Source: an uncultured Alphaproteobacteria bacterium
GTDB taxonomy: Bacteria; Pseudomonadota; Alphaproteobacteria; Rhodobacterales; Rhodobacteraceae
Direction of reading: 5' to 3'
DNA length: 64,000 bases
NCBI GenBank assembly: GCA_902537415.1
Contig: CACBBC010000005.1
Location: 14,842 to 78,841, forward strand
Notes under the pieces: model-generated
What the model was told of the DNA's origin: nothing
What the model saw: only the letters and a program-made list of their open reading frames with translations
The model's database searches: none
In this document: in pieces, positions 5,921 through 53,693 of the stretch
Numbering within the stretch: the stretch's first letter is position 1
Layout of the letters: each line of letters begins with the position of its first letter
Program-made: the position numbers and the translations under genes

Positions 5921-5922
5921 AT

Positions 5923-33619: not shown

Positions 33620-34553
33620 TTTGAACATTTTTATCTCAACTGGATCTAAAACTGCAGAATACAAGAAGGCTCTTGCAGAAGAAATCGAAGCCCAATCTTT
33701 GAACTATAACATAGTAGAAGACATATCCAGAAGCAATGAGGTTAATGCAATAATATATGCTGATGATAGTGACATCGCCGACTTTTCCATTTTCCCAGAT
33801 GATACGGTGATATTCTCAATATTTGCAGGTGTTGAAAAAACGCTTTTAAACAAAACAATCCAGCAACCGTTGGTGAGATTAATTGATCTAGAAATGACCG
33901 AATGCATGGCCGAATGGTGCACCGCTCATGTATTGAGATATCATCTTGACCTCGATAAATATATTAAGCCAGTAAAAAAAGAATGGAAAGCGCACAACAA
34001 AGAAAGGCTACTTGCAAATCAAATTGACATAGGAGTCTTAGGTCTTGGGACTCTTGGATCAGCCACCGCAGAAAAACTTCAGAAACTTGATTTTAAGGTA
34101 ACAGGTTGGTCTGCAACAGAAAAAAATATTCCGGGAGTACGATCATTAATAGGACCGGAAGGTTTGACAAAAATACTCTCCACTTCCGATTACTTAATAC
34201 TACTACTACCACTCACAGAGAAAACAAAAACCATTATCAACTCGGATTCGCTTAAAATCGTTAAGACTGGAGCAATTTTGATCAATGCTGGGAGAGGAGG
34301 ATTAATCGAAGACAATGACCTTCTAAAAGCACTTGATAGTGGGAAGCTTTCAGGGTGTACTTTAGACGTCTTTAACGAAGAGCCTTTGCCACCAGAACAC
34401 CCCTTTTGGTTCCATGATAAAGTGACTGTTACTCCTCATATATCTGCTCCGACACGATTGAGAAGTTCTATTAAATCTATTCTGATAAATATCGACAGAA
34501 TAAAAAAAGGTCTGCAGCCCTCAGGTTTGGTAAAGAAAAAGAGGTTCTATTAA
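33606..34553 (+). CDS. D-isomer-specific 2-hydroxyacid dehydrogenase (glyoxylate/hydroxypyruvate reductase A-like)
   Basis: NAD-binding GVLGLGTLGS, catalytic region INAGRGGLI...LDVF...TPHISA. The ATG at 33606 overlaps the rodA stop and is preferred over the start at 33573. Confidence 0.75.
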   Translation: MLASDLNIFISTGSKTAEYKKALAEEIEAQSLNYNIVEDISRSNEVNAIIYADDSDIADFSIFPDDTVIFSIFAGVEKTLLNKTIQQPLVRLIDLEMTECMAEWCTAHVLRYHLDLDKYIKPVKKEWKAHNKERLLANQIDIGVLGLGTLGSATAEKLQKLDFKVTGWSATEKNIPGVRSLIGPEGLTKILSTSDYLILLLPLTEKTKTIINSDSLKIVKTGAILINAGRGGLIEDNDLLKALDSGKLSGCTLDVFNEEPLPPEHPFWFHDKVTVTPHISAPTRLRSSIKSILINIDRIKKGLQPSGLVKKKRFY

Positions 34554-36244: not shown

Positions 36245-36245
36245 C

Positions 36246-36536
36246 TTACTTTTCCTCCATGCCTGGATAATCTTCACTATCCACTGCTTTTTTGGCATAG
36301 AAATTTTCTGGCCTTCCCAAAAGCAACCTTAGCAATCGTGATCCAAATATTATAATTGAAAACATTATGAACCCATAAATACTATAAAAATTATAGGTAC
36401 TCTCAATTTCAAAATAGACATATCTCTTAACAAAAAAATCTATTACGAATAAGCAAAGACACAGAATTAAAAAAACAATCAGTAGAACTCGAAGTCGATT
36501 AGCTTTCTCAAAAAATATGAATGGGTTAAATCTCAT
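36246..36536 (-). CDS. small two-TM membrane protein of unknown function embedded in the Mrp-like operon
   Basis: 96 aa with two hydrophobic helices, packed between two D-type subunit genes with gaps of 9 nt or less. Confidence 0.45.
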   Translation of the reverse strand: MRFNPFIFFEKANRLRVLLIVFLILCLCLFVIDFFVKRYVYFEIESTYNFYSIYGFIMFSIIIFGSRLLRLLLGRPENFYAKKAVDSEDYPGMEEK

Positions 36537-36545
36537 GTTCTCTCC

Positions 36546-38018
36546 TCAGCTCACTAAACCGAAATTAATCATAAAATCTCTTATATGACCTACATAAAAA
36601 AACAAAAGTAATGAGATACTAGCCGTTATTGCGGGCGGTAGCCAAACAAATGCGCTCGGCTCTTTAAAACTTTTAAACTCTTTTTGATCTGAAGGGTTAA
36701 GATAAAAGCCCTTTGCCACTAATGGCAAAAGATATGCGATATTAAGAAGGGAACTTATCAATAGGACTAAAACCACGAATTGTTTATCTGCCTCAAGAGA
36801 TGATAATATTAAAAACCATTTTGCCCAAGACCCCCCCATCGGAGGAAGTCCTATGATCGATATGGCACCTATAAGAAAACTTAAAAACGTAATTGGCATC
36901 ACTCTTCCCAATCCCTGCATATCACTAATATTTGTTTTCTTGGTTGCTACATAGATAGAACCAGCACACATAAATAGAGTGATTTTCCCAAACGCGTGAG
37001 TAACTATTTGTAGAGCTCCACCCAAAACGCCCAGACTATTCGCAAGAGAGAAAGCAAGCACAACATAAGCCAATTGACTAATAGTAGAATAAGCGAGTCT
37101 AGCTTTTAAATTATCTTTAGTCATCGCGACCAGAGAAGCGAATAAAATCGAAAAACAAGCTAACCAAGTTAGCCAATCTGTTGCCCCCGATACTGACAAA
37201 CTCTCTACACCAAATATGTAAACACCTACTTTAAGAACTGTGAAAACTCCCGCTTTAACCACAGCAACAGCATGCAGCAAAGCACTAACAGGTGTAGGAG
37301 CGACCATAGCAGCAGGCAGCCACCTATGGAACGGAAATAGAGCTGCCTTCCCTATCCCAAAGGCAAATAACGCGACGAGGAGTGTTAATTCTAATGATCC
37401 AAAGGAGCCATTTAAAATTCCACCTTTTACAAAATCCAACGTGCCAATAGAAAAATAAATCCAAATTATGCCTAGCAACTGTAGACCAATTGACGTTCCT
37501 AGTAATATTGATAGGTAAACTCTTGCACCTCTCAACGCTTCATTCGAGCCCTTATGAGAAACTAATGGAAAGGTAATGAGAGTTAGTATTTCGTAGAATA
37601 GAAATAAGGTGAAAAGATTTCCAGAGAATGAGATCCCCATAACACTGGCTATTGACAGGGAAAAAAAGAAAAAGAACCTCGAATGGTTTTTCTCCTTTGC
37701 TCCTCTCATATATCCAATCGCGTAAATATGAGTAAGTATCCAAAGTCCTGAGGCCAACATTGAGAATATAATGCCCAGAGGCTCAATATGAAAAGAAATA
37801 TCAATCCCGGGCATTATGGTAGCCAGTTTATATTGTGTTGCCTGACCATCAAAGCCGAGAAAAATGTTTGCACTAAAATAAAATGTTATCAGTGCACCTA
37901 GTAGAGTAACAGTATCCCTGACATTTGGTTTTTTATTAAAAATTAAATTAAACCCGCCCACTAATGCCGGAGTAAAAACTGTTAAAAATATCAAAAACTC
38001 TATCGGCATAAAATACAC
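36546..38018 (-). CDS. MrpD/NuoN-type antiporter subunit
   Basis: 490 aa polytopic protein with Proton_antipo_M-like motifs (FFLFYEILTLITF, PTPVSALLHAVAVVKAG). Confidence 0.8.
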   Translation of the reverse strand: MYFMPIEFLIFLTVFTPALVGGFNLIFNKKPNVRDTVTLLGALITFYFSANIFLGFDGQATQYKLATIMPGIDISFHIEPLGIIFSMLASGLWILTHIYAIGYMRGAKEKNHSRFFFFFSLSIASVMGISFSGNLFTLFLFYEILTLITFPLVSHKGSNEALRGARVYLSILLGTSIGLQLLGIIWIYFSIGTLDFVKGGILNGSFGSLELTLLVALFAFGIGKAALFPFHRWLPAAMVAPTPVSALLHAVAVVKAGVFTVLKVGVYIFGVESLSVSGATDWLTWLACFSILFASLVAMTKDNLKARLAYSTISQLAYVVLAFSLANSLGVLGGALQIVTHAFGKITLFMCAGSIYVATKKTNISDMQGLGRVMPITFLSFLIGAISIIGLPPMGGSWAKWFLILSSLEADKQFVVLVLLISSLLNIAYLLPLVAKGFYLNPSDQKEFKSFKEPSAFVWLPPAITASISLLLFFYVGHIRDFMINFGLVS

Positions 38019-38019
38019 C

Positions 38020-39519
38020 CTACTTGAAAAGGATTTCTGTGGCCATGTTAGCTACATCCACTGTTAAACCAGTATTAATGCCTAGAAAAATACAAAAAAA
38101 GGCGAGTATCCAAATAGGCATCAATGTAAGAACGCTTACTTCACTGTAAGTTTCTGTACTTTCTGCAAAGTATAAAACTTCGATTATCTTCCATATATAA
38201 ATAACTGCGAAGAGCGACGACACTATAATAAGAATTGCTAATAACCAATACCCGGTTTCAAGTGCTGCTTCTAGAAGCAGCCATTTGCTAATAAATCCAG
38301 CTGTACCAGGCACACCAATCAAACTTAAACCCCCAATTACGAAAGCACCTGAGGTAAATGGCATTGATTTTCCTAAACCTCTTAAACTTTTAATATATAC
38401 ATTTTTTGTATTAAACATAAAAGCACCTAGCGACATAAACAGCGCTGCTTTAGTGAAGCCATGATTAACCATATGCACTAATGAAGATGAAAGGCCTTTT
38501 TGACTCATTAACGATAATCCAAGGAGCATATACCCTATTTGTGCGAGGCTAGAATAAGCGAGTAGCTTCTTTAGGTTCTGTTTGAAAATGGCAATAACTG
38601 ATGCCGCGATCATTGCGATTACTGCAAGAGGCATTAAAAGGAGAAAAAAGAGCTCACTTACAAAGTTCTCTTCATAATTGAACACAGAAAATACAAATCG
38701 GATCAAAACATAAAGTGCAACTTTGGTCGCTGTTGCAGCCAAAAAGCAGGTAACTACAGTGGGAGCAAAGGTATAAGCATTAGGCAACCAAACATGAAGA
38801 GGAACCATAGCAAGCTTAAGCCCCATACCCACAACAATAAAGGCGAATCCCGCTTGAATAGTTCTGTTATCACCTAATTGGCTAACTCTTTCCGCAATGT
38901 CCATCATATTTAGAGATCCAGTCGCCATATATATATAACCAATTCCAATTACAAAAAAAGTTGCACCAATAGTGCCCATTATTAGATAATTGAAGGATGC
39001 AGAAAGTGCCCTTCTATCAAGATAGGACCCTTGTGCTACCAAAACATAGGTGGATAAACTTGAAATCTCTAAGAAGACAAAAACGTTAAAAATATCTGCT
39101 GTCGCTACTACACCTAACAAACCGGTAAGGCATAAAAGAAAGCAGGCGTAGAACAAAGTATGTTTTTCTTCAGGAATTTCTGCGTGAAGTGAAGAATACG
39201 AAAAAATCAGTACAATTGCACTTATAATTGATATCAGAAACAATAATATAGCGTTGGCGGCGTCTATTCTGTATTCAATTCCGATTGGCGGCACCCATCC
39301 CCCAAGGTAATAAGTGAGAATGCTGCCGTCACTGACAGCTTGTATTAGTAAGATTGATATAAATAAAGACGCTAAAGTGCCTACAAAGCTTAGCAACCAA
39401 GACAATGTCTTATTGTTAAGTACAACCAATATAGGTGCTATCAACATCGGAATGATCACTTGCAAAATTGGTAAATGATTAACCAACTCTAAAGTGCCCT
39501 GTTTAATTTCTGAAGCCAT
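38020..39519 (-). CDS. MrpD/NuoM-type antiporter subunit
   Basis: 499 aa polytopic protein (VFLEISSLSTY, HVWLPNAY, LVHMVNHGFTKAALFM). Confidence 0.8.
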   Translation of the reverse strand: MASEIKQGTLELVNHLPILQVIIPMLIAPILVVLNNKTLSWLLSFVGTLASLFISILLIQAVSDGSILTYYLGGWVPPIGIEYRIDAANAILLFLISIISAIVLIFSYSSLHAEIPEEKHTLFYACFLLCLTGLLGVVATADIFNVFVFLEISSLSTYVLVAQGSYLDRRALSASFNYLIMGTIGATFFVIGIGYIYMATGSLNMMDIAERVSQLGDNRTIQAGFAFIVVGMGLKLAMVPLHVWLPNAYTFAPTVVTCFLAATATKVALYVLIRFVFSVFNYEENFVSELFFLLLMPLAVIAMIAASVIAIFKQNLKKLLAYSSLAQIGYMLLGLSLMSQKGLSSSLVHMVNHGFTKAALFMSLGAFMFNTKNVYIKSLRGLGKSMPFTSGAFVIGGLSLIGVPGTAGFISKWLLLEAALETGYWLLAILIIVSSLFAVIYIWKIIEVLYFAESTETYSEVSVLTLMPIWILAFFCIFLGINTGLTVDVANMATEILFK

Positions 39520-42102: not shown

Positions 42103-42948
42103 ATGAATAACACTGAACTTACTGATCATACAATTGAACTAAATGGTCTCAAAATCTCAAATAAGAACCAATTGACGCTTATTTCTGGTCCATGCCAGCT
42201 TGAAAGCCTTGAGCATGCTATGATGATCGCCGAAAAATTAATAGAAATCTGTGATCGTAATGCTATCAAATTTGTCTTTAAATCGTCATTTGATAAGGCC
42301 AATCGAACTTCACATTTATCAAAGCGTGGCCTTGGAATTGAAGAAGGTCTTAAAATCTTCCAAAAATTGAAGAGCAGTCTACACATATCCACATTGACGG
42401 ATGTGCACACACCAGAACAATGCGAGCTTGTAGCAAAAGAAGTCGATATTCTGCAAATACCTGCTTTTCTATGCCGACAGACGGATTTAATCATTGCAGC
42501 TAGTAAAACGAATAAACCCGTCAATATAAAGAAGGGGCAATTTCTATCCCCCGCTGAGATGCAGCAGGTGGCCGGAAAGTTTATATCTACAGGTAACAAA
42601 AATTTACTCCTTTGTGAACGAGGCACTACTTTTGGCTACAATGATTTGGTTTGCGACATGCGTTCCATAGAAATTCTTAGACAAAGTGGGTTCCCAACCG
42701 TTTTAGATATTACTCATTCTATTCAACAACCAGGAGGAAAAGGCTCAGAGAGTGGAGGCTCAAGAGAGTTCATTGAAACTTTAGCAAAAGCTGGCACAGC
42801 AGTTGGTATCGCTGGTGTGTTCATTGAGACCCACGAGAAGCCTGAGACAGCGCCGTCAGATGGTGCTTCTATGCTTCCTCTTGACCAGTTATCAGGGCTA
42901 TTAAGTAAAATTAAAGCAATTGATGATGTCGTAAAATCTTTTGACTGA
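42103..42948 (+). CDS. kdsA: 3-deoxy-8-phosphooctulonate (KDO-8-P) synthase
   Basis: 281 aa with KdsA motifs LISGPCQLES, FKSSFDKANR and DITHSIQQPGG. Confidence 0.9.
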   Translation: MNNTELTDHTIELNGLKISNKNQLTLISGPCQLESLEHAMMIAEKLIEICDRNAIKFVFKSSFDKANRTSHLSKRGLGIEEGLKIFQKLKSSLHISTLTDVHTPEQCELVAKEVDILQIPAFLCRQTDLIIAASKTNKPVNIKKGQFLSPAEMQQVAGKFISTGNKNLLLCERGTTFGYNDLVCDMRSIEILRQSGFPTVLDITHSIQQPGGKGSESGGSREFIETLAKAGTAVGIAGVFIETHEKPETAPSDGASMLPLDQLSGLLSKIKAIDDVVKSFD

Positions 42949-43001: not shown

Positions 43002-43076
43002 TGGGGTGTAGCCAAGTGGTAAGGCAGCGGGTTTTGATCCCGTGTACCGTAGGTTCGAATCCTACCACCCCAGCCA
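43002..43076 (+). tRNA. tRNA-Gln (anticodon UUG)
   Basis: TGGGGTGTAGCCAAGTGGTAAGGCAGCGGGTTTTGATCCCGTGTACCGTAGGTTCGAATCCTACCACCCCAGCCA. The cloverleaf folds by hand (U1-A72, discriminator G73, anticodon loop UUUUGAU). CCA is encoded. Confidence 0.9.
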
Positions 43077-43300
43077 CTCCTAACATTAGCTGAAGTGCTA
43101 TGTTTTCTTTGATATTGCTGATTAACTACTTACCCAATCAAAATCTATAGTCTATAGAATAATCTGTTTTTGATAACACTTTGACAACATTTACTTTCAG
43201 TGGGCGATTTTGACTTCCAATTTAGAAAATGTAAGCTTCAAGTTATGGATGGTTTCATTTAATATCTCGTATAAGAAGCTAATATCTAACTAGGATCCAT

Positions 43301-43645
43301 TTGATGATTAAAAATTTTATGGCTATTCATGACGTTCACAATGATGAAGCTGCAAAAGCATATAAATCGTATTTTAGGGAAACGTATGCAGATGTAGTAA
43401 CCCACGGAGAATGGGCTAAAACTACTGTTGGCGAATTTGCTACTGTAATTCAAGTATGGCAAGGTACTAAAAGCAACTTTTATTGCACTCATTTCCAAGC
43501 CGTTAGCGAGGAACATGTTTATAAACAGCTAGATGCTTGGGGTATGGATCGCTTTTTTAATTCAATGGTGATGGAGACAGAACGTTTCACTTCGGCTCTA
43601 CTTCCTGAAAATGAAGAGATCGATAAAACCTACTTTAAATCGTAA
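43301..43645 (+). CDS. hypothetical protein (114 aa), first ORF after tRNA-Gln
   Basis: This is an open frame only. There is a vague resemblance to small alpha/beta DUF4242-type proteins (FMAIHDVH...) that I cannot confirm. A 76-aa antisense ORF overlaps it. Confidence 0.4.
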   Translation: MMIKNFMAIHDVHNDEAAKAYKSYFRETYADVVTHGEWAKTTVGEFATVIQVWQGTKSNFYCTHFQAVSEEHVYKQLDAWGMDRFFNSMVMETERFTSALLPENEEIDKTYFKS

Positions 43646-43842
43646 CCCAATTCTTGCAAATGCCACTCCATAGATTTTTGACAACGCTTTCAACGCTATG
43701 GTTAAAAAATCATTGAACATTTTTACCACTTAAAACTCCAGCCATTTTCTTTAAGAAGATAAGTTTGCTGTTTCCTTAGAATGTTCTTCAGATTTTGAAA
43801 GCTATGAAATGTTTTTGAATAAGGATCACATTCTCTTTAAAA

Positions 43843-44784
43843 TCAATTAAATTTTATTACAAGTCGACCTCTGACCCCGCCACTTTCAAATCGTTTATGT
43901 GCTTCCGACACTTGAAACGGACTAAATGTATCGGCCAACCTCAATGAAAGTTTATTTGCGTTTACAAGCTTCCTTAAATCATCCAATTTTTCATACATGC
44001 AATCTTGAGTTCTTACCCATGTTTGCGTAAAATTTATATCACGCTCACCTGTCCCTTGATAACCTCTTACTGCGGTAAAAGAGCCTCCATTTTTGACTGC
44101 TGCAACTGCTTTTTCATTTAATAAAGCGCCGTCTGCTAAGCCGTCTACTCCCTCGGGAAACCGGTCCAATATGTGTTTAATAAATTCTTCTCCTCTTGGA
44201 AGCGATAGATCTGCACCAAGTGATTTAATTAAATTTTGATCTTTTTCTGACGTATCTGCTATCACATATAGACCTAAAGTTTTTGCAATTTGGATTATGT
44301 AACCTCCGTAGGCTCCTGCAGAGCCAGTAACTGCTAACTTATCGCCTGGGTTCAAGTTCAAAAGTTCTAGAGAAAGCTTTGCCGTTAAGCCATTCATTGG
44401 TAAAGTACACGCTTCTTCAAAACTGACCCCTTCGGGAATTGGAACCACTGCTCCTGATTTTAGAGCAATTTGTTCGCGGTATGCCCCGTGTTGACCATTT
44501 GGTACGACCATTGCCATGACCGCGTCGCCTTTTTTGAGATGAGTTTTGACGTTTTCTCCAATCTCCATTACTTTCCCAGAAACATCCATTCCCGGAACAT
44601 ATGGAGGATCATAAGGTTTTTGTCTCTCAGCTATACCTCCATTACGAGCTAAAATATCTGTAGGATTTATAGCTGCGCAAAACACCTGTAGCAGTATCTC
44701 ATCTGCTTCAGCTTTTACCTCAGGCACTTCAATAAGCTCTAGCACTTCAGGTCCGCCGTGCCTCATTAAACCAATCGCACGCAT
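43843..44784 (-). CDS. NADPH:quinone oxidoreductase / zinc-independent MDR-family oxidoreductase
   Basis: 313 aa with an MDR N-terminus (EVLELIEVPEVKAEADEILLQVFCAAINPTD) and a cofactor loop (VTGSAGAYGG). Confidence 0.8.
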   Translation of the reverse strand: MRAIGLMRHGGPEVLELIEVPEVKAEADEILLQVFCAAINPTDILARNGGIAERQKPYDPPYVPGMDVSGKVMEIGENVKTHLKKGDAVMAMVVPNGQHGAYREQIALKSGAVVPIPEGVSFEEACTLPMNGLTAKLSLELLNLNPGDKLAVTGSAGAYGGYIIQIAKTLGLYVIADTSEKDQNLIKSLGADLSLPRGEEFIKHILDRFPEGVDGLADGALLNEKAVAAVKNGGSFTAVRGYQGTGERDINFTQTWVRTQDCMYEKLDDLRKLVNANKLSLRLADTFSPFQVSEAHKRFESGGVRGRLVIKFN

Positions 44785-44850
44785 CTGTACTCCTTTGGTT
44801 ATGATAGATAGTTGGTTAAGTTATGTTACACTATAAAAAAAGAATTTTAA

Positions 44851-45603
44851 ATGATGTTACCAGACGATCTTACACCTGAGCAATTTAGTAAAAAACCGGC
44901 AGTCCTGAAAGCTCTTAATAATCCTCGTTCTCCGAGCAGTGTTTTAAATTATATGTGTGGCTGCGATATTAATAATCCTATTGATAGAAAAAGCCTTTTT
45001 TACGATGAAACAGTGGAACTACTATTAGGCATATGGTTTAGAAGTGGAACTGCTTTAGACGATATTTGCAAACCATTTTCATCTGTTATTCGTGAACTGA
45101 AAGCTGATCCACAAACTTTGGTGGAGGATAAATGGTTCACAATTGAGGGCCAGGTTGCTAGAGTGCTCTTAGCAGATCAACTATCTCGCTCATGTTTTCG
45201 AGGGACGGCTGAAGCTTTTTCGTATGACTACATAGGACGCGAGCTCGTTCGAGACCTAGTTAGTAAAGAGAAAATCAAACAAACTTTAAAATTGCCTCCA
45301 GCACTACTGTATTTACTTCCCTGGGCTTTGGCCCATTCAGAAGAAATAATCGACCTTGTTCGCGCACGCGAAATAATTGACATGGCAATTGGTGCTTATC
45401 CTGACTTCAGTTTATTTGAAGAGAGAAATAAGAAAGCGGTAGATCAACATAGGCAGGTTTTAGAAAAATTTGGGCGTTACCCGCAAAGAAATTCAGAGTT
45501 AGGAAGAGCTAATACCCCTGACGAAGAAAAATGGCTCAATGATAAAGAGAATTTACCAATTTGGGCAGGTGGCAGTCTTTCTTTTGATCAAAAAATTAGA
45601 TAA
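44851..45603 (+). CDS. DUF924-family protein
   Basis: 250 aa with the DUF924 signature FGRYPQRNSELGRANTPDEEKWL. Confidence 0.7.
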   Translation: MMLPDDLTPEQFSKKPAVLKALNNPRSPSSVLNYMCGCDINNPIDRKSLFYDETVELLLGIWFRSGTALDDICKPFSSVIRELKADPQTLVEDKWFTIEGQVARVLLADQLSRSCFRGTAEAFSYDYIGRELVRDLVSKEKIKQTLKLPPALLYLLPWALAHSEEIIDLVRAREIIDMAIGAYPDFSLFEERNKKAVDQHRQVLEKFGRYPQRNSELGRANTPDEEKWLNDKENLPIWAGGSLSFDQKIR

Positions 45604-45655
45604 GACGAAATTTATAAATCTTAGCTATATCTTTATTTTTATTATTCTATAGATT

Positions 45656-47065
45656 GTGCGAATGCTTGAAACAAAATCTATTCCTAAAGAATTACAATCT
45701 TCAATAAAAGAAAAAGGGTATGACAAACTAACGACAGTTCAAAGCTTAGTGCTTGATCCTGGCAACAAAGATAAAGATCTCCTGGTGAGCTCCCAAACAG
45801 GCTCTGGCAAAACACTTGCTTATGGGTTGTCAATATCGGTTGCTGGACTTAAAGAAATTCTGGATACAGATAACAAACTTCAAACCCTAATCGTTACCCC
45901 CACGCGTGAATTAGCTTTACAGGTTTTTAATGAGTTAGCATGGCTGTATTCTAAGACTGAGATCAGAATCTCAACGGCGATCGGCGGGATGGATATAAAA
46001 AAAGAAAGGAAAAATATTTCTAAAGGAGTTGATCTTTTAATAGGAACACCAGGAAGGATTAATGACCATGTACGTCGAAAAACTTTCCACTTAAATTATC
46101 TAAGATCGCTTGTCCTAGATGAAGCTGATGAAATGCTTGATTTGGGCTTTAAACAAGACTTAGATATGATTGTAAATCAAAGTCCCGCAAATAAGAGGGT
46201 ACTTATGTTTTCAGCAACCATCCCAAAAAAAATAATGTCATTAGCATCAAAGTACCAAAAAAACGCTGTCAGAATTGAAGCTACTAGTCTTGGCAAAGCC
46301 CATACTGATATTTCTTATGAAACATATTTAGTAAAAAAACATGATATTGAAAACGCAATATTCAACTTTCTCCGATTTCATGATGATAAGACTATTATTA
46401 TTTTTTGCTCTACTCGGAATGCTGTAACGCATATCTCTTCAAGAATATTAAATAGAGGTTTTTCTGTTGTCTCCTTATCTGGCGCATTGAATCAATCGGA
46501 GAGGTTCAAGGCATTACAATCCATAAAAAATGGTAGGTGTAAAATATGTGTTGCGACAGACGTAGCTGCTAGAGGTATTGACCTGGTTAACTTGGATATA
46601 GTGATACATGCTGAGCTCCCTCATAATCCAGAAACCTTAATACACAGAAGCGGGCGAACTGGGAGAGCTGGGAATAAGGGTCGAAGTATTCTTTTTTGTT
46701 CACCTAGCGAGAAGAGAAAATATGAAAAATTGATCAATTCTGCAAAGGTAAGACCGGCTATCAATAAATTCCTTTCTCAGGAAGAAATAGAACTTAAAGA
46801 TAATGAAAAGATCATAAACTACCTTTCAAGAAGCCAAAAAAATAGTTCTAGTGAACTCAAGTTTGCTAATGAGCTATTAACTCGATTTTCTAATGAAGAT
46901 TTGGCCTTAGCGCTAATTGAAAATTTCAAAGGAAAACTACCTCCTATAGAGGAGGTGGAAAGTCTTGGCGAAGATCAAATTGTTCAAATGAAAAATGATC
47001 GAAAAAAAAAGAAAAGAAGCAAACAAAATTCCAGGCGTAACTTTAGAAAAAGACGGGAATATTGA
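45656..47065 (+). CDS. DEAD-box ATP-dependent RNA helicase
   Basis: Motifs present are I (SQTGSGKT), II (DEAD), III (SAT) and VI (HRSGRTGRAG), with a basic C-terminal tail. The start may be GTG 45656 or ATG 45662. Confidence 0.85.
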   Translation: MRMLETKSIPKELQSSIKEKGYDKLTTVQSLVLDPGNKDKDLLVSSQTGSGKTLAYGLSISVAGLKEILDTDNKLQTLIVTPTRELALQVFNELAWLYSKTEIRISTAIGGMDIKKERKNISKGVDLLIGTPGRINDHVRRKTFHLNYLRSLVLDEADEMLDLGFKQDLDMIVNQSPANKRVLMFSATIPKKIMSLASKYQKNAVRIEATSLGKAHTDISYETYLVKKHDIENAIFNFLRFHDDKTIIIFCSTRNAVTHISSRILNRGFSVVSLSGALNQSERFKALQSIKNGRCKICVATDVAARGIDLVNLDIVIHAELPHNPETLIHRSGRTGRAGNKGRSILFCSPSEKRKYEKLINSAKVRPAINKFLSQEEIELKDNEKIINYLSRSQKNSSSELKFANELLTRFSNEDLALALIENFKGKLPPIEEVESLGEDQIVQMKNDRKKKKRSKQNSRRNFRKRREY

Positions 47066-47172
47066 CAACACTTTTGACAACGGTTTTCGTGATTTTCCTG
47101 ATAACGCATAAGGAAAATGAGAAGCATAAGAACTATTTTAAAGAGTTATGAGAATCCTGATAACAAATTCCA
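47062..47172 (+). repeat. conserved ~105-nt arm-like element, copy 1 (TTGACAAC x2, CGTGATTTTCCTG, GATAACG, CCTGATAACAAA)
   Basis: Aligns by eye with 49588-49698 and 52147-52256. It directly abuts the tRNA-half copy. Its first TTGACAAC contains the helicase stop codon. Confidence 0.8.
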
Positions 47173-47221
47173 CGGGTTTCGATCCCGTGTACCGTAGGTT
47201 CCAATCATACCACCCCAGCCA
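47173..47221 (+). repeat. copy of the tRNA-Gln 3' half (attR-like), 49 nt
   Basis: CGGGTTTCGATCCCGTGTACCGTAGGTTCCAATCATACCACCCCAGCCA aligned to tRNA positions 43028-43076 shows 3 mismatches by my count. Confidence 0.85.
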
Positions 47222-47277
47222 TCTATTGCTAACATGACGGTAAGTGATCACTTTTCAAAGCAAAATCAAATAAAAAT

Positions 47278-47985
47278 TTAATTAGCCATTTTTATGAAAA
47301 TGTCCCCCATACCTCCCCTGACCTCTTTGAATGGTGTATTATTTCTAAGTGGACAGTAGCTTCCTGTTATGACTTCTCTATTTATCTTTTCAATATCCTT
47401 AGGTGAACAGATTTTGCTTTCGAATAGCACTCCAACCACTAGCCTTCCATTTATTTCAGTCACTCGTTTTTTATTTAGTGAAGTGCCAACACAAATGGAC
47501 TCTCTATCGACCTCTTCAGGAAAATCTGGTTTTTCACACGGGTTTTTTATTGTTAATACGTTGATTAATTCCCTCTTATCATCAAATGTTTTTTCAAGGG
47601 CCTGAACCTGAACAAATTTCATCACATCACAAGAGCAGGGCCAACAACATCTGTAAAGCGAGCCACAAATTAATTCTTCATCCTGGCCTCTGACAGAAAC
47701 AAATTCAGGTTGAGAACCGGGCCGTACAAGTGACCCAGAGACACTACAATACATCTTATTCTTCTCGAAAAACTCATCTCTAGAATTTGAATTATCTAAA
47801 ATATATTTAAAAAATAGAGCACCGCCAGCATTTCTGTTTTTGTTTGGAAATATTTTCCCCCAATCTGCTCGTAACTCTTCATAATAACGTATCAATTTTA
47901 AACTATCAGAACTTCGAGACTCTCCTAAGCTTATTGGGGGGATTATTAAGCACATTACAAAAAGTGTGAAAATATACCGAGTCAT
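47278..47985 (-). CDS. secreted cysteine-rich protein of unknown function
   Basis: The Met at 47985 gives a signal peptide (MTRYIFTLFVMCLIIPPISLG) and lies 1 nt after the stop of the upstream FG-GAP gene. The cluster CGSLYRCCWPCSCD plus further Cys residues is present. I recognise no family. Confidence 0.55.
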   Translation of the reverse strand: MTRYIFTLFVMCLIIPPISLGESRSSDSLKLIRYYEELRADWGKIFPNKNRNAGGALFFKYILDNSNSRDEFFEKNKMYCSVSGSLVRPGSQPEFVSVRGQDEELICGSLYRCCWPCSCDVMKFVQVQALEKTFDDKRELINVLTIKNPCEKPDFPEEVDRESICVGTSLNKKRVTEINGRLVVGVLFESKICSPKDIEKINREVITGSYCPLRNNTPFKEVRGGMGDIFIKMAN

Positions 47986-47986
47986 A

Positions 47987-49483
47987 TCAATTTGTTTTAC
48001 CTTGGTTGAAAACATATTGGTGGTTCAGCTTTTGAATTTTGTATTTTGATTTTTGACCGTCAGTCCAAGTTATCTGAATGTATTCAATCTCTTCATTTTT
48101 ACGGATTCCAAAATGGGCTACTGGTTCCATTTGGCATAAATACCCGGAGCCTGCATCTATAGTTTTAGCGTGGGTTCTGAAATTTGTCTTAAGTGTTACA
48201 GTAGCACCTCTTGCTGGCGCATCGTAAGAGTTTTTAGGTTCTATTCTTAAATATTGAAAATCGTCCTTAACATTAGCTGAAAAAAGGCTTAGTGGTTCAG
48301 GAGCACTTTCACCATGAGCAATAAGTAGCTCCAAAATTCCGTCACCATTTAAATCCGCTACTGCTCCACCAGTACCCAGACCGGTCCTTTCTAGAGCATT
48401 TGTCAATTCCAACTGTTCGAGTTTATTGTTATCTAGAATTCTAAATAATTTATTTGGTTGACCAATATTGTTCAAAAATATCTCATCAAACCCATCATTA
48501 TCGAAATCGGCGGATATAACGGTTCTTATTTTCGAAGGTTGTCTAAAATTTAAAGACGCTGTATCGACAAATGTGTTGTTTGCATGGGTGTATATTCTGT
48601 GAAAACCATTCCAATTTCCTGTAATAAGGTCTAAGCTTCCATTATATCCAATATCTGATAAGGCCGTTCCTCTCCCATTTTGGAGAGTGTCATCGATGCC
48701 GTACTCTAAAGCTTTGTCAGTGTATGTGCCATCCTTGTTTATCAGTAAAAAATTAGGTCCTCGTTCATTCGCAGCGAAAATATCGACTTTTCCTGATAGA
48801 ATATGCCCTGCTACAACAGCACGACCACCGGTCGTAGAATTTATTCCAAGTGAAGGTGCTATGTCTTGAATAATACCAGTTTTCAGTTCGTAAAATCTTG
48901 TTGGACCCCCATAGTTGGAGACATAAATTCCATAGTTACCGTTGCCATGTCTATCAACGCAAGCCACTGACCTACCCGCCGTAAGGTTCAAGTTTGCCTG
49001 ATTTTTTTTCAAACTGAAGATATCGTAATTCGTTTTATCCAAATCTATCAGACGATCTGAATATTTTTTCGTTCCACTATAAGTGTCGGTATTCAAGAAA
49101 TAAATTTCCTCGTATCCATCCTGATCCACATCACAAGCAACAACTCCAATCGAAGATCTTTTTTCATCAGCAAATAGTTCACTAGAATTAATATTTGTAT
49201 ATGAACCATTCTCATAGCTCAGTGCGAGATTAGGATATCGAAACCCTGCAACTATGAACTCCATTTTTCCATCATCGTTAAAATCGGTTACGGCCACGCC
49301 ATAAGACAATCTTGGTACGTTATTTTCTATTTTATCTGTAATGTTTTGAAAAAACTGAGCATTAGCTGAATGATTGTTTTCAGATACACCGAAATAGACA
49401 GCAAAAATGGCTGTAACAAACGTACTTTTTTTGACCAAGACAATATATGCGGCAACTTTCTTAAACAATTTTTTTAAATCCAT
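47987..49483 (-). CDS. FG-GAP/VCBS-repeat protein with C-terminal ASPIC/UnbV domain (CRTAC1 family)
   Basis: 498 aa with a signal/anchor sequence and repeated Ca-binding-like DxDxDG motifs (DFNDDGKMEF, DVDQDGYEEIY, DFDNDGFDEIF, DLNGDGILELL). The C-terminus is GSGYLCQMEPVAHFGI...ITWTDGQ. Confidence 0.8.
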   Translation of the reverse strand: MDLKKLFKKVAAYIVLVKKSTFVTAIFAVYFGVSENNHSANAQFFQNITDKIENNVPRLSYGVAVTDFNDDGKMEFIVAGFRYPNLALSYENGSYTNINSSELFADEKRSSIGVVACDVDQDGYEEIYFLNTDTYSGTKKYSDRLIDLDKTNYDIFSLKKNQANLNLTAGRSVACVDRHGNGNYGIYVSNYGGPTRFYELKTGIIQDIAPSLGINSTTGGRAVVAGHILSGKVDIFAANERGPNFLLINKDGTYTDKALEYGIDDTLQNGRGTALSDIGYNGSLDLITGNWNGFHRIYTHANNTFVDTASLNFRQPSKIRTVISADFDNDGFDEIFLNNIGQPNKLFRILDNNKLEQLELTNALERTGLGTGGAVADLNGDGILELLIAHGESAPEPLSLFSANVKDDFQYLRIEPKNSYDAPARGATVTLKTNFRTHAKTIDAGSGYLCQMEPVAHFGIRKNEEIEYIQITWTDGQKSKYKIQKLNHQYVFNQGKTN

Positions 49484-49587
49484 CTTATTTATTCATCATG
49501 ACACAGAGGAACTTTTTTAATCTTATTTCTGAGACGGTGGCTCAAAGCTCCACGGGTGCAAAGTACCAGATAGACTAAAAAGGAAAA

Positions 49588-49698
49588 TTGACAACAAATT
49601 TGACAACACTCTCCGTGATTTTCACGATAACGCAAAAAAACTATCAGAAGGATAAAAAATATTTTTAAGGGTTTTATAAAACCTGATAACAAAATATA
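49588..49698 (+). repeat. conserved ~105-nt arm-like element, copy 2 (TTGACAAC x2, palindrome CGTGATTTTCACG, GATAACG, CCTGATAACAAA)
   Basis: Collinear with copy 1, with 8 differences in the first 50 nt by my count. Confidence 0.75.
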
Positions 49699-49735
49699 CA
49701 GATTTTATGTCAAGTACCAATGTTGAGAAATTGAA
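49699..49735 (+). repeat. strongly decayed copy of the tRNA-Gln 3' half
   Basis: CAGATTTTATGTCAAGTACCAATGTTGAGAAATTG retains GATTTT..., the GTACC core and TTGAGAA. The call rests mainly on the conserved element to the left and the conserved GCTAAC...TCACTT flank to the right. Confidence 0.45.
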
Positions 49736-49904
49736 AAGCTAACCGTTAAATCACTTACATTTAATACACACCAATGAATAAATTATTTTGTTTACGTTAC
49801 GTAATCATTGCAAGAAATAAATTTTGCAAATACCTTAACTATGTTGTGTTAATAATACATTTCTTTGCTTTTTGCGTGCTAGATCAACTGCATGAATTCA
49901 TAAT

Positions 49905-50699
49905 TTGGATAGATTACCCCGTTTCAATCAAGAATACGAACCCTTGAACGTGGCGTCACCATTCTCTGTAAAATTACTTCCGAAAGATATTCAACAAGTA
50001 GCTCTATTCCTAGACGTTGATGGCACTCTATATGAGATTGAAAACAGTCCAGGCTTAATCAAGCCTTGTTTTAGTTTGCAGAAAAAACTGCTCACCATCC
50101 GTAATAGACTTCAAGGTGCGTTAGGGCTTATAAGTGGCAGGACTTTAGATGATCTAGATAGGCTTTTTGATAAAAATAAAATTTCTTTTGCTGGGAACCA
50201 CGGAGCACAATTGAGAGATGCACTCCGAATTAAGGAGCACCAGGCCAATACCGAAAACATAAAGGATATTGCCCATAAAATTAAAGAATTACTTATTGGA
50301 CAAAAAAATATTGAGATTGAAAACAAGGGTTCAAATTTAACTGTTCATTTTCGAAATTCAACGATCGATAGGAAAAAAATCAATCGAATAATAATGGAGC
50401 TTGTCAAATCTGACCCTAGTTTAACTTTCCTAAAAGGAAAGGAAGTTTTGGAAGTTAAACCCCTGAGCCATAATAAAGGAACGGCAATTTCATATTTTAT
50501 GAAAACTAAACCTTTTATAAAACGGAGACCTATCTTTATCGGTGATGATGTAACCGATGAGGATGGTTTTGAAACTGTCAACAATAAAGGTGGCTGGTCA
50601 GTTCGTGTTGGAAATTATAAAAGGAGTAAGGCCAACTTCTTTTTACCTAATGTTAAATCCGTTCACGGAGTAATGAAGCAACTTCTAAAATCAAGGTAA
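49905..50699 (+). CDS. otsB: trehalose-phosphatase
   Basis: 264 aa with HAD motifs FLDVDGTL and GDDVTDEDGF. The ORF opens with a TTG start, and the true start is uncertain. Confidence 0.8.
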   Translation: MDRLPRFNQEYEPLNVASPFSVKLLPKDIQQVALFLDVDGTLYEIENSPGLIKPCFSLQKKLLTIRNRLQGALGLISGRTLDDLDRLFDKNKISFAGNHGAQLRDALRIKEHQANTENIKDIAHKIKELLIGQKNIEIENKGSNLTVHFRNSTIDRKKINRIIMELVKSDPSLTFLKGKEVLEVKPLSHNKGTAISYFMKTKPFIKRRPIFIGDDVTDEDGFETVNNKGGWSVRVGNYKRSKANFFLPNVKSVHGVMKQLLKSR

Positions 50700-50715
50700 A
50701 TCAAATAGGAGAGTT

Positions 50716-52098
50716 ATGAGTAGAGTAGTCGTTATTTCTAATAGGGTCATGCATCCCAACGAAAAAAAACCTGAGGCATCTGGCGGACTTGCCGTTGCAT
50801 TATATGATACGTTGAAGGAAACAAACGGTCTTTGGTTTGGTTGGAGTGGAAGAATTACCACAAAAGAAATCAAACCAAATGTAAAAAAGGATGAAGGAAT
50901 AACTTATGCCATAGTTGATTTAACCAAAAAAGATTACGAAAATTACTATAACGGTTATTGTAACGAAGTACTATGGCCTATTTTTCACTACAGATTGGAC
51001 TTGGTAGCTTATTCTAAATTAAAATTTGAAAGTTATAAGACCGTAAATGAGTCATTTTCATTTAAAGTCAAAAAACTTCTCAATAATGAAGATTTGATAT
51101 GGGTGCATGATTATCATTTTTTATTGATGGCAAGAGAGTTGAGAAAGCTTAAATGTACACAAAAAATAGGCTTCTTTTTACACATTCCATGGCCATCAAA
51201 AGAAATTTTGACTGCATTACCTGATCATCGAGAACTTGTTGATGCACTCTTAGAGTTTGACTTGATAGGCTTTCAAACTAGAAAACATGTACTTACCTTT
51301 TTAGATTATATCATTAGTGAGCTAGGAGGATCAGTTGAACCAGATGGATCAATATTTGCTTTAGGTAAAAAGGCTAAGGTAAAGCATTTTCCAATATCTA
51401 TAGATACGAACAAAATTATAAAAATATCAGAAGAGACTGATAACTCTCCTCAGGTAAAAAGACTAGTCAAAAGTATTAAAACGGACAAACTAATTATCGG
51501 CGTCGATAGGCTAGACTATTCGAAGGGACTTGAGCTTAGATTCGCAGCGTATAATCATCTTCTAAAAAATCATAGTGACCACATCGGATCAACAACTTTG
51601 CTTCAAATAGCCCCTACCTCAAGAGGTTCTGTTTTTCAATATAAAGAAATAAGAAAAAAATTAGAGCTTAGTGCTGGACAAATAAATAGTGCGTATGGTG
51701 ACTTTGATTGGACGCCAATAAGGTATCTCAACAAAGGATTCCAGCAAAAAAGTCTTATGGGATTTTTTAGAAATAGTAGAATTGGACTTGTAACACCACT
51801 AAGAGATGGAATGAATTTGGTGGCAAAGGAATATATAGCGGCTCAACGCGCGAGTGATCCAGGAGTGCTAATTTTGTCAAGATTTGCAGGCGCAGCAGAA
51901 GAATTGCCAGACGCATTGATTGTTAACCCCCATGATCCGGAGGGAGTAGCAAAAACATTGAATTATGCACTAAAAATGCCTAAGCAGGAACGCTTGAGGA
52001 GATGGCTAAATGCTTTTGATCAATTACATTCGTTTAATATAAATATTTGGAGGACTCACTTTATCGACGCATTGGAAACATCCATAATTACAAAGTAA
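50716..52098 (+). CDS. otsA: alpha,alpha-trehalose-phosphate synthase (GT20)
   Basis: 460 aa with OtsA signatures VVISNR...GGLAVAL...WFGWSG and IWVHDYHFLL. Confidence 0.88.
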   Translation: MSRVVVISNRVMHPNEKKPEASGGLAVALYDTLKETNGLWFGWSGRITTKEIKPNVKKDEGITYAIVDLTKKDYENYYNGYCNEVLWPIFHYRLDLVAYSKLKFESYKTVNESFSFKVKKLLNNEDLIWVHDYHFLLMARELRKLKCTQKIGFFLHIPWPSKEILTALPDHRELVDALLEFDLIGFQTRKHVLTFLDYIISELGGSVEPDGSIFALGKKAKVKHFPISIDTNKIIKISEETDNSPQVKRLVKSIKTDKLIIGVDRLDYSKGLELRFAAYNHLLKNHSDHIGSTTLLQIAPTSRGSVFQYKEIRKKLELSAGQINSAYGDFDWTPIRYLNKGFQQKSLMGFFRNSRIGLVTPLRDGMNLVAKEYIAAQRASDPGVLILSRFAGAAEELPDALIVNPHDPEGVAKTLNYALKMPKQERLRRWLNAFDQLHSFNINIWRTHFIDALETSIITK

Positions 52099-52146
52099 TA
52101 AGGTTATAAACAAAAAGAAGGCACTTTATTCTTTTAAGTTAACTTT

Positions 52147-52256
52147 TTGACAACACTATTCGTGATTTTCACGGTAACTCATTAGAGGCATCAGAAGTAT
52201 AAGAATAACATTAAAAAGTTATTAGAAACCTTATAACTCCTTGTAACAATAACTAC
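52147..52256 (+). repeat. conserved ~105-nt arm-like element, copy 3 (single TTGACAAC, palindrome CGTGATTTTCACG, GGTAAC)
   Basis: Collinear with copies 1 and 2, but its distal half is more diverged. Confidence 0.7.
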
Positions 52257-52302
52257 GTTTTGATCCAGTGTACCGTAGGTTCGAATTCTACCATCCTAGC
52301 CA
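52257..52302 (+). repeat. copy of the tRNA-Gln 3' half (attR-like), 46 nt
   Basis: GTTTTGATCCAGTGTACCGTAGGTTCGAATTCTACCATCCTAGCCA shows 4 mismatches to the tRNA by my count. Confidence 0.8.
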
Positions 52303-52366
52303 TTTGTCCGTAAGTGCTTAGTGATTCTCTAGAATTTATTTTCCTGCACTACTCCATTTTTGAATT

Positions 52367-52780
52367 TTACTCATACATTCGCGCAACTGCAGGTATCACT
52401 CCTCTGTGGTTCAGGCTTTGATCAACTGAAGATGGCTTCAATATCTCTTGTAAATAGTCCAATGCATTCCGCGGATCACAATGCCCACACATGAAAATAT
52501 CAAGTGAAGCAAAATTACGTTCTGGCCAAGTATGTATACTTATGTGACTTTCAGATAAAACTGTTACACCGCTTACGCCCATACCTTCGCCAAAAGGATG
52601 ATAGTAAGAATGCAGGATCATCGCGCCAGCCTTGCGAGCACTTTCTTCTATTGTTTCTTTTATAAAATCTAAATCACCCATTCGTTCCACATCCCAAAAA
52701 TCAGCAAGTATATGCCTTCCTGCAAATTGATCACCTGTTTTTGAACATGTTACGAAATAGTCGCTATCGAGATGGTTCAT
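52367..52780 (-). CDS. speD: S-adenosylmethionine decarboxylase proenzyme (small bacterial class)
   Basis: Contains the canonical self-processing and active-site motif LSESHISIHTWPE. The Met at 52780 lies 1 nt after the speE stop. The longer ORF reaching 52849 overlaps speE and is not needed. Confidence 0.85.
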   Translation of the reverse strand: MNHLDSDYFVTCSKTGDQFAGRHILADFWDVERMGDLDFIKETIEESARKAGAMILHSYYHPFGEGMGVSGVTVLSESHISIHTWPERNFASLDIFMCGHCDPRNALDYLQEILKPSSVDQSLNHRGVIPAVARMYE

Positions 52781-52781
52781 T

Positions 52782-53693
52782 TTATACTGCCTCCTCTTCT
52801 TTCTTGGATCTTCTATTAATGTCATCTCGGATCCATGGAGGAAGAACAAAAGATGCCAAATGCATTTCTGGACTGTAATGTCTAGTTTTAAAACATGCTC
52901 TTTTAAAACGTTTGTTTAGTGTTTCTAAAAGGGGTAGTGACCAAGTAGAATTAAGAACTCCAAAACCGAGTGTCATGTATCCGCCATAATACGTTGGGAT
53001 CGCAGCAATATAACAACTAGCGCTCAATCCTGCATTCTTTAGGCAAGATAAAGTACCTCCAACCTCACCTGGCTGGAATTGAGGGACACCTCCTTGGGTC
53101 GAAACCACAGCATTTTCCCTAAGAATTTTTACTAAGTTTTTATAAAATTCATGGCTGAATAATTTCTCCCCAGGGCCAATAGGATCAGTTGAGTCAATTA
53201 TAACCGCATCAAACTTTAAATCTGTTTCTTTCACATACATAAAAGCATCACCAACGATTAGTTGCACTCTAGTATCTTTGTAAACTTCACCTCCATTATT
53301 AACGCTAGGTATATAGTCCACACAGGCATCAATCACCATCTGATCAATTTCTGCCATGACAACCCTTTTTATGCCTTCATGCCGAAGAACTTCGCGCAAA
53401 ATCCCACCATCACCACCGCCAATAATAAGAACATTCTCTGGTTTTTCATGCGAAAAAAGGGGTACATGCGTCATCATCTCTTGATAAACGAATTCATCAC
53501 ATTCTGTGATCTGAATTGCACCATCAATGGCTAATACACGACCAAGTGTATCGTTCTCGTAAATTGCAATATCTTGATATTCGCTCTTTCCTTCAAATAA
53601 GGTTCTATTGATTTCGAAACCCTGGAATGCCTTACTCCCTTTAAGGGTATAAATGCTTTCAACATCTTCTATAAAATTACGCCGCGCGCTCAT
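52782..53693 (-). CDS. speE: spermidine synthase / polyamine aminopropyltransferase
   Basis: 303 aa with the SpeE signature VLIIGGGDGGILREVLRH and DSTDPIGPG. Confidence 0.88.
   Translation of the reverse strand: MSARRNFIEDVESIYTLKGSKAFQGFEINRTLFEGKSEYQDIAIYENDTLGRVLAIDGAIQITECDEFVYQEMMTHVPLFSHEKPENVLIIGGGDGGILREVLRHEGIKRVVMAEIDQMVIDACVDYIPSVNNGGEVYKDTRVQLIVGDAFMYVKETDLKFDAVIIDSTDPIGPGEKLFSHEFYKNLVKILRENAVVSTQGGVPQFQPGEVGGTLSCLKNAGLSASCYIAAIPTYYGGYMTLGFGVLNSTWSLPLLETLNKRFKRACFKTRHYSPEMHLASFVLPPWIRDDINRRSKKEEEAV

Follow-up and report, generated by a model that had tools for sequence, protein, structure and literature searches.

A tRNA-Gln-anchored array of integrase-less gene cassettes in an uncultured marine alphaproteobacterium and a candidate helper integrase in a related genome

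Introduction

How does a bacterium come to carry unrelated genes stacked behind a single tRNA gene, closed by pieces of that same tRNA, with no recombinase among them? The question is raised by a 64,000-nucleotide stretch of DNA from an uncultured Alphaproteobacteria bacterium of the Rhodobacteraceae (assembly GCA_902537415.1, contig CACBBC010000005.1, positions 14,842 to 78,841; hereafter the window), in which the 9.3 kb between the gene pair kdsA–tRNA-Gln and speD are an island of at least five cargo cassettes that lack an integrase. A preliminary description, made from the letters of the window only, had taken the region for a tandem array in which one element after another integrated site-specifically at tRNA-Gln, and had left it open whether its modules are fossils or are mobilized in trans. 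We argue here that the island is probably an additive one, made of integrase-less cassettes that were delivered by site-specific recombination at a 169-nt attachment (att) site, that a helper integrase in the population probably mobilizes and whose att sites are eroding in this genome.

Accretion of elements at tRNA genes, cis-mobilizable elements (CIMEs) and tycheposon remnants are known already, and what is gained here is a good model locus and no new principle. The locus shows, with unusual clarity and at the level of sequence, how the flexible genome of a streamlined uncultured ocean bacterium is put together. Its precise 169-nt att, a candidate integrase and excisionase pair and at least 17 cassette types, shuffled among genomes that are 98–99 % identical beside the island, make helper-dependent mobilization of integrase-less cargo testable, a process also put forward for the islands of Prochlorococcus and for additive islands generally.

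Results and Discussion

The island opens with an intact tRNA-Gln(UUG), whose positions 27–75 (window 43028–43076) form the core of the att site on its attL or attB side. Repeat finding recovered two direct copies of this 49-nt core on the plus strand, of which the copy at 47173–47221 is identical to the tRNA at 46/49 positions and the copy at 52254–52302 at 42/49, and a third, badly eroded copy lies on the same strand at about 49699–49746. As expected of a tRNA-anchored array, an intact tRNA stands at one end of the island and same-strand repeats of its 3′ part stand at the unit boundaries. A 35-nt core pattern allowing up to three mismatches matched the tRNA and the copies at 47173 and 52254 only in the 64 kb and gave no match in 100 shuffles; shuffled controls had been named in the preliminary description as a check on the similarity of the tRNA halves.

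Each distal core is preceded by an arm of about 120 nt, and arm and 49-nt tRNA part together make up the 169-nt att site. The arm contains two TTGACAAC repeats, one CGTGATTTTC motif and up to three CTGATAAC repeats, a complete arm having five TGAYAAC repeats in all, which share one orientation. With 15 full sites, of which 14 come from related genomes and one from the window, a profile hidden Markov model (HMM) of the att site was made, and it matched the window on the plus strand at 43027–43076, 47063–47221, 49589–49703 (arm only, E=1.5e-16) and 52145–52302 and nowhere else; the remaining E-values are given in Table 1. Sixteen full sites can be aligned across arm and core, the similarity stopping at the tRNA 3′ end, and in 15 full sites from relatives conservation ends exactly at ...CCAGCCA. 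The 5′ edge of the arm is likewise sharp and lies at the first TTGACAAC, all five repeats are kept across differing cargos, and the arm is as conserved as the coding flanks. Conservation of this kind suggests selection for protein binding.

These results settle most details of the preliminary description. Its 3 mismatches in 49 nt for the copy at 47173–47221 and 4 in 46 nt for a copy at 52257–52302 were counted correctly, the latter being part of the full copy given above. Its decayed middle copy, placed at about 49699–49735, is real, as shown by the arm match of the profile and by a core for which the relative L001 has a less eroded homologue at the corresponding junction. Some of its details had to be corrected. 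The first base of the repeat is tRNA position 27, which belongs to the 5′ strand of the anticodon stem and not to the 3′ strand; the core thus takes in the entire anticodon loop along with four of the five stem bases of the 5′ strand. The similarity claimed for about 30 nt past the tRNA end at four places is not supported: of six pairs compared with shuffles, only the one formed by the tRNA and the copy ending at 47221 is significant (p=0.007, uncorrected). Conserved sequence does flank the copies, as had been noticed, but the main part of it is the upstream arm of about 120 nt, which had largely been overlooked.

A pair of TGAYAAC repeats also follows the tRNA itself, at +95 and +106 from its end, and is a putative P′ arm-type site pair; no internal core is followed by it. 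A longer arm remnant at 43169–43299 (z ~3) was rejected except for its first 20 nt, which are read as the P′ pair because the same pair stands at the same offset in three relatives (L002, L004 and the integrase-bearing L010).

The repeats might alternatively be tRNA pseudogene duplications, products of chance, or a regulatory or RNA element that punctuates operons, and the arm does contain TTGACA hexamers resembling a −35 box. In the stack, however, promoter-like and terminator-like sites are not enriched and Rfam matched the tRNA only, while the arm folds no better than its shuffles (z −0.1 to −1.8). Profile E-values down to 1e-50, the lack of chance matches in shuffles, and the presence/absence polymorphism and integrase adjacency described below all argue for an att site, and a non-mobile origin is accordingly very improbable.

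The coordinates of the island are collected in Table 1. Its cassettes follow each other in the order orf114, quinone oxidoreductase (QOR) with DUF924, DEAD-box helicase, orf245 with an FG-GAP protein, and otsBA. The gene content reported earlier is thereby confirmed; the three modules into which it had been divided become at least five cassettes, the first module being three cassettes with collapsed junctions at 43674–43744 and 45606/45607. These collapsed junctions were resolved only by alignment to relatives; att remnants sought at 43640–43860 and 45560–45700 by local alignment alone were not significant.

Table 1. The island, its flanks and its att sites in the window; labels beginning with L denote related genomes described in the text.
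Feature	Coordinates	Strand	Evidence	Occurrence in relatives
kdsA (DAHP_synth_1 family), conserved left flank	42103..42948	+	Pfam 6e-68	upstream of tRNA-Gln in 11/11
tRNA-Gln(UUG), intact	43002-43076	+	ARAGORN, Rfam; att HMM positions 120-169 match, E=5e-14	
Cassette 1: orf114 (43301-43645)	43077..43744	+	homologous cassette in relatives	L004, L009
TGAYAAC repeat pair, putative P′ arm-type site pair	43171-43188	+	+95/+106 from tRNA end	L002, L004, L010
Cassette 2: quinone oxidoreductase (43843-44784, -) and DUF924 (44851-45603, +)	43745..45606		Pfam, NCBIfam	L001, L002, L005, L007
Cassette 3: DEAD-box RNA helicase (45656-47065) and att (arm 47063-47172, core 47173-47221)	45607..47221	+	att HMM E=5e-50	homology begins at 45607 in L003, L006, L009 alike
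Cassette 4: orf245 (47278-48015) and FG-GAP/UnbV protein (47987-49483); eroded att (arm 49589-49698, core remnant about 49699-49746)	47222..49746	-	Pfam; translation; core aligned via L001 intermediate	L001, L002, L004
Cassette 5: otsB (49905-50699) and otsA (50716-52098); terminal att (arm 52145-52253, core 52254-52302)	49747..52302	+	NCBIfam; att HMM E=2e-34	L001 only
speD (AdoMet decarboxylase), conserved right flank	52367..52849	-	Pfam 2e-31	L003, L007

The orf114 cassette ends in a collapsed att of an arm stub and the last 9 nt of the core, and its homologue in L009 closes with full arm and core. Behind the PIG3-type quinone oxidoreductase, the DUF924 stop codon runs straight into the final 32 nt of the core in two relatives (L001:12975–13008 and L002:19637–19670), and a third carries a core remnant resembling this truncation (L007:16260–16289); in the window the att of this cassette is gone, a 36-nt deletion having taken even the 32-nt truncated core. 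The product of orf245 is Cys-rich with a hydrophobic N-terminus. The otsB product is assigned as trehalose-phosphatase (T6PP) above the NCBIfam cutoff, and that of otsA matches OtsA with 1.9e-167 and 557.6 bits, slightly below the cutoff of 564.85. No recombinase is found by Pfam among the stack ORFs (open reading frames) of at least 114 aa, and an HMM of 78 tyrosine integrases run against the six-frame translation of the whole window gave a best E of 1.2. Together, the Pfam, PHROGs-guided and HMM searches returned neither a recombinase nor a transfer gene, in line with the earlier statement that the stack lacks a recombinase.

For comparison, a kdsA scan of GTDB species representatives provided 11 relatives (L001–L011), all single-cell or metagenome-assembled genomes of uncultured Alphaproteobacteria, with kdsA 85–99 % identical to that of the window. 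Left of the island, homology runs through the kdsA–tRNA-Gln pair that all 11 share and stops no more than 9 nt from the tRNA 3′ end (43076–43085) in ten of them; the exception, L004, continues into a shared orf114 cassette. On the right, homology resumes at 52363 with speD as the flank in L003 and L007, the two relatives whose fetched locus reaches the end of the array. In between, each of the 11 has a different series of cassettes after the same tRNA, bounded by this att, and the blocks of homology begin and end at tRNA-derived cores. We counted at least 17 cassette types, and the cargo in relatives includes methyltransferases, an ABC transporter operon, an adenylate cyclase, an EamA transporter and a copper chaperone. 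Most relatives have cores identical to the tRNA at 49/49 positions and arms with all five repeats. The check proposed earlier, whether modules are present or absent independently and break exactly at the repeats, thus came out in favor of the array.

Even genomes with nearly identical flanks differ in this way: the window, L001 and L002 share 3.9-kb flanks at 97.8–99.0 % identity, and their arrays are permuted. The order QOR-DUF924, DEAD, orf245-FG-GAP, otsBA of the window stands against methyltransferase, orf245-FG-GAP, otsBA, QOR-DUF924, DEAD in L001. In L001, the orf245/FG-GAP and otsBA genes form one block whose internal junction is already eroded, and such a composite block, dead inside beforehand, would have reached or been inherited by both genomes. 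This also accounts for the non-monotonic decay that the preliminary description had noticed in the middle copy: the decay is real, and the composite block explains it. Composite blocks thus travel or survive as wholes, and the place of a cassette in the array does not tell its age. The DEAD cassette offers the complementary case of a unit with a constant start, which lies 7 nt past a core; this core is that of the tRNA itself in L009 and that of the preceding cassette in L003 and in L006, the two preceding cassettes being unrelated.

Divergence of the cassettes does not follow that of their hosts. Between the window and L001, the synonymous divergence (dS) of kdsA is 0.011, compared with 0.14–0.42 for seven shared cassette genes, whereas for the window and L006 the DEAD gene (dS 0.167) is less diverged than kdsA (0.30). 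For QOR, dS between the window and L005 is 0.072 though the flanks are only 92 % identical. Between genomes, arm identity (mean 92.5 %) and flank identity (90.0 %) are uncorrelated (r=0.03). Judged by these values, the cassettes move between lineages, some being more and some less diverged than the host. The ratio of nonsynonymous to synonymous divergence (dN/dS) is 0.07–0.31 for all cargo genes, the two orphans included (0.12–0.24 for orf114), and by this measure the cargo genes are functional and under purifying selection.

A candidate cognate recombinase for this att is found through L010 (single-cell genome AG-895-K23) and not through the window. In L010 the first unit after tRNA-Gln is an element of about 6.4 kb that joins a tyrosine integrase and an excisionase to the same arm, arranged as tRNA-Gln, a TGACAAC pair at +95/+106, small ORFs, excisionase, a 209-aa ORF, integrase, flagellin and arm, within which the contig ends. 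The integrase has 389 aa, matches PF00589 (3e-22) and phrog_1 (2e-65) and gives a weak match to an arm-binding domain, and the excisionase-family protein of 66 aa scores above the cutoff of TIGR01764. Two of the small ORFs encode HTH_36 proteins with N-termini like that of phage RepO; no primase or helicase was found in the element, and its PHROGs matches comprise the integrase, the excisionase-like protein and the replication-initiator-like HTH (helix-turn-helix) proteins only. The flagellin gene is the cargo. With an integrase at the same tRNA and variable arrays behind it, the proposal that site-specific integration took place repeatedly at tRNA-Gln and built up the tandem array is supported.

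Integrases 94–96 % identical to that of L010 occur on short ocean metagenome contigs, two of them from Tara assemblies and one from the metagenome scan. Homology among these L010-like elements breaks off some 10 codons ahead of the integrase stop, and the cargo beyond that point varies, namely flagellin in L010 (15150–15290), an RTX-like repeat protein in L084 (1450–1530) and L086 (1115–1392), and a secreted protein of no assigned family in L085 (1796–1880). The boundary between integrase and arm thus looks like a recurrent point of cargo insertion in four nearly identical elements.

More distant metagenome homologues, 40–60 % identical, show the integrase gene followed directly by a pair of direct repeats of about 8 nt, a spacer of about 95 nt and a tRNA 3′ part, which we take to be the ancestral layout. 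The tRNA part is tRNA-Gln-like in four cases, and in a 44 % identical relative the first repeats of the arm overlap the 3′ end of the integrase gene (L087:2750–2820). The arm is therefore tied to this integrase family by the adjacency of integrase, repeats and tRNA in its homologues. The repeat sequence varies with the integrase (TGACAAC, GTTGCCCAAA, GGTGGGA, GGGGCCCAAA, AAGTGACAC), a co-variation that fits arm-type binding sites. Each element has a further, element-specific direct-repeat pair in the region of the small HTH genes, about 1.4–1.5 kb upstream of the integrase gene (L010:12647–12665, L087:220–238, L088:8515–8533), which could be iterons or a regulatory site rather than arm sites of the integrase.

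Integrases 38–53 % identical (L092:901–2259, L088:11137–11360, L094 and L162) adjoin tRNA-Pro(UGG) or the 3′ part of a tRNA other than tRNA-Gln. The integrase family appears to have been retargeted to other tRNAs with the layout of integrase, repeat pair and tRNA part kept. A 44 % identical integrase lies on the JGI contig of P0007, in the order AAA_25, small ORFs, HTH_36, a 70-aa ORF, a 247-aa ORF and integrase; its cargo differs, as a 1168-aa DEAD/Helicase_C protein and an ECF (extracytoplasmic function) sigma factor adjoin the integrase. None of the named integrase homologues is from Prochlorococcus.

Based on these observations, we propose the following mechanism. Each cassette would be delivered by recombination at an att made of a P arm with five TGAYAAC repeats and the 49-nt core, the repeats presumably being bound by the arm-binding domain of the integrase. 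Strand exchange is predicted to fall within the anticodon loop, TTTTGAT, which the inverted stem halves CGGG and CCCG enclose. Williams is said to have included integration in the anticodon loop in a classification of tRNA integration sites in 2002. The cognate enzyme would be a lambda-type tyrosine integrase with an arm-binding N-terminus, encoded on the cargo-carrying element of about 6.4 kb. Cassettes keep arm and core and may have lost the integrase module or never possessed it, which would make them units mobilizable in cis or trans. With a helper present, any two cores could recombine and excise single cassettes or composite blocks as circles, and the circles could re-enter at tRNA-Gln of the same or another cell, while deletions between direct repeats would happen as well.

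Such an att resembles a lambda-type attP, with arm-type repeats about 10–120 nt from the core on the integrase-proximal side and a further pair about 95 nt away on the other side, an identity block that begins in the anticodon stem and ends with the tRNA 3′ end, and an integrase with a weak match to an N-terminal arm-binding domain. It differs in that most cassettes are one-armed.

If the repeats were merely portable homology, the 169-nt sites would serve as substrates for RecA only, and cassettes would be swapped, deleted and gained by homologous recombination with no present role for an integrase. All of the repeats are indeed direct, with 90–100 % identity across about 170 nt; beyond its 32-nt truncated core, the armless QOR+DUF924 cassette has different right-hand neighbors in different genomes; and the order of L002 can be derived from a window-like order by deletion of DEAD between two cores. 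Deletion does not suffice for the block permutation between the window and L001: blocks would have to be excised and re-inserted, or else gained independently at the tRNA. The sharp arm edge, the five conserved repeats and an arm as conserved as coding flanks suggest selection for protein binding, and a cognate integrase and excisionase exist. We regard recombination of this type as a quite improbable explanation for the island as a whole. Deletion or homologous recombination does also shape the arrays, as the armless QOR+DUF924 cassette and the collapsed junctions show.

A different objection is that the array may be a pure fossil record, in which each cassette is the leftover of a full integrase-bearing element whose integrase and replication module were deleted, integrase-less units never moved, and strain differences arose from independent integrations and deletions. 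Cargo of the L010 type sits exactly between integrase gene and arm, from where a deletion on the left leaves cargo, arm and core; deletion is common here, to judge from the collapsed and truncated att sites, and the att sites of the window are eroded. The DEAD cassette, however, has the same start in three contexts without a trace of P′ arm or integrase, which would require either identical precise deletions before each spread or the spread of an integrase-less unit after all. Many distal cores in relatives are 49/49 with intact arms, which is unexpected for old wrecks. A purely fossil origin thus appears unlikely to us. By the reading we prefer, integrase-less units probably still move with a helper, as argued by pristine cores and arms in relatives, identical cassette starts in different contexts and discordant dS values. 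For mobilization by a helper integrated in tandem the argument is a comparative one, from permuted orders and discordant dS; the L010 contig ends inside the arm and does not reach any cassettes that may lie beside the helper.

In the window, none of the distal att sites is free of lesions at the positions predicted for binding or crossover. Its arms keep four, three and one of the five TGAYAAC repeats (arms at 47063, 49589 and 52145, respectively), the 47173 core has a T-to-C change in a position of the anticodon loop, which reads TTTCGAT there and is predicted to be inactive, and both stem halves are mutated in the 52254 core. As no helper is encoded in the 64 kb and every distal att is damaged, the array is most likely becoming fixed as ordinary chromosomal genes.

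Several points weigh against helper-mediated mobilization. The integrase is present at one of 12 loci, and searches of the window and of the fetched parts of the other relatives did not recover it. Neither excised circles nor an empty site were observed, so mobility is deduced from comparison, and since most cassettes lack the P′ repeat pair, their circles would be an incomplete attP by the lambda paradigm. Given the inner repeat pair, the TGAYAAC repeats themselves could be iterons for the HTH_36 protein. The armless QOR+DUF924 cassette with its 32-nt truncated core still has different right-hand neighbors in L002 and L007, which points, for some events at least, to homologous or illegitimate recombination. 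The arm-core junction pattern gave no match in a metagenome contig collection, where short-read assemblies may break at a repeated att, and neither this junction pattern nor the integrase protein was found in IMG/VR viral contigs. Three matches of the arm pattern in IMG/VR (L081–L083) occurred at the rate expected by chance, had no other similarity to att or cassettes and were discarded.

A bolder version of the proposal is that the locus belongs to a working, integron-like cassette system driven by a lambda-type integrase, in which cargo units with a one-armed 169-nt site that lacks a P′ arm are singly excised, exchanged between cells and re-inserted at tRNA-Gln by a rare helper present in roughly one genome in ten. 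We consider this possible though rather doubtful; if true, an abundant streamlined lineage of marine Alphaproteobacteria would have a population-wide pool of single-gene cassettes.

As a side observation on the abundance of host and helper, an MrpD-like protein of the window (34550–36298, Na+/H+ antiporter subunit D, in a minus-strand region spanning 34550–39519) is 98 % identical to an ocean-metagenome cluster of 525 members, and the host lineage is therefore common in ocean metagenomes; the nearest named relatives of MrpD, from Rhodobacteraceae, reach only 65 % identity. Two integrase clusters have 18 and 32 members, which gives a very rough hint that about a tenth of the cells carry the helper.

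Comparison with Known Systems

Among the closest known systems are the tycheposons of Prochlorococcus, small elements that target tRNAs and combine a tyrosine integrase and an excisionase with a small replication-type module and ecological cargo (Hackl et al., bioRxiv 10.1101/2020.12.28.424599). According to that work, older elements are displaced outward as new ones integrate at one and the same tRNA, and partial tRNAs stay behind; most of the island material lacks an integrase, intact elements are found in a minority of cells, and related elements are reported from marine Alphaproteobacteria. The window and L010 share with them the tRNA targeting, the combination of integrase, excisionase and cargo, and the integrase-less islands, and may share the small replication-type module; the likeness is one of build. 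A scan of L010 for modules of the tycheposon type returned the integrase, the excisionase, the two HTH_36 proteins and flagellin, and the P0007 contig of a 44 % identical relative has AAA_25 in the equivalent position. Host and target tRNA differ, and the putative replication module of L010 consists of HTH_36 proteins only, neither a primase nor a helicase having turned up. The tycheposon paper does not describe cassettes that lack an integrase and yet each retain a complete, highly conserved 120-nt arm (10.1101/2020.12.28.424599).

CIMEs have lost integration and transfer genes and kept their att, stand in tandem with a related autonomous element at a tRNA 3′ end (Pavlovic 2004; Bellanger 2011; review PMC5704250), and can be excised alone or as composites by the integrase of a helper (PMC5704250). 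The window cassettes resemble them in being flanked by cores and free of integration and transfer genes, with several att damaged here. Known CIMEs derive from integrative and conjugative (ICEs) or integrative and mobilizable elements (IMEs) of Firmicutes and number few per locus, whereas arrays of the window type have many cassettes of one to seven genes each and no conjugation genes. Additive islands with tRNA 3′-end repeats are furthermore represented by fGI-2, a flexible genomic island at tRNA-Lys in ‘Ca. Methylopumilus’ (PMC10872708), and by the ssrA genomic islands of Dehalococcoides, where the enzyme is a serine recombinase (PMC3146451). Both are strain-variable stacks beside a tRNA or tmRNA gene, split by direct repeats of its 3′ end, in which some units have an integrase and those without one are proposed to be cis-mobilizable (PMC10872708, PMC3146451). 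Their repeats measure about 20 nt, in contrast to the 49 nt plus 120-nt arm and the tyrosine integrase of heterobivalent type seen here.

With integrons the island has in common small, mostly promoterless-looking cassettes that end in a recombination site, a single anchor site preferred for insertion and an order shuffled between strains. It is nevertheless not an integron. There is no IntI, the L010-type integrase scoring 29.5 bits against a cutoff of 265 bits (NCBIfam); the site consists of direct repeats and a tRNA part and not of a folded attC, the anchor is a tRNA gene and not attI/Pc, and the cassettes occur in either orientation, with genes on the plus and on the minus strand. A prophage or a satellite like the phage-inducible chromosomal islands (PICIs) was also considered and rejected, as PHROGs detected no packaging genes in the L010 element and neither att nor integrase was found in IMG/VR.

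Other Features of the Window

The second tRNA gene examined, tRNA-Arg(UCU) (14572–14648, minus strand), has no copies of its 3′ part elsewhere in the window and seeds no island here. Apart from the island, the window holds a TPP riboswitch (Rfam RF00059, 60.8 bits) at 5832–5929 on the plus strand, directly upstream of an ORF at 5923–6741.

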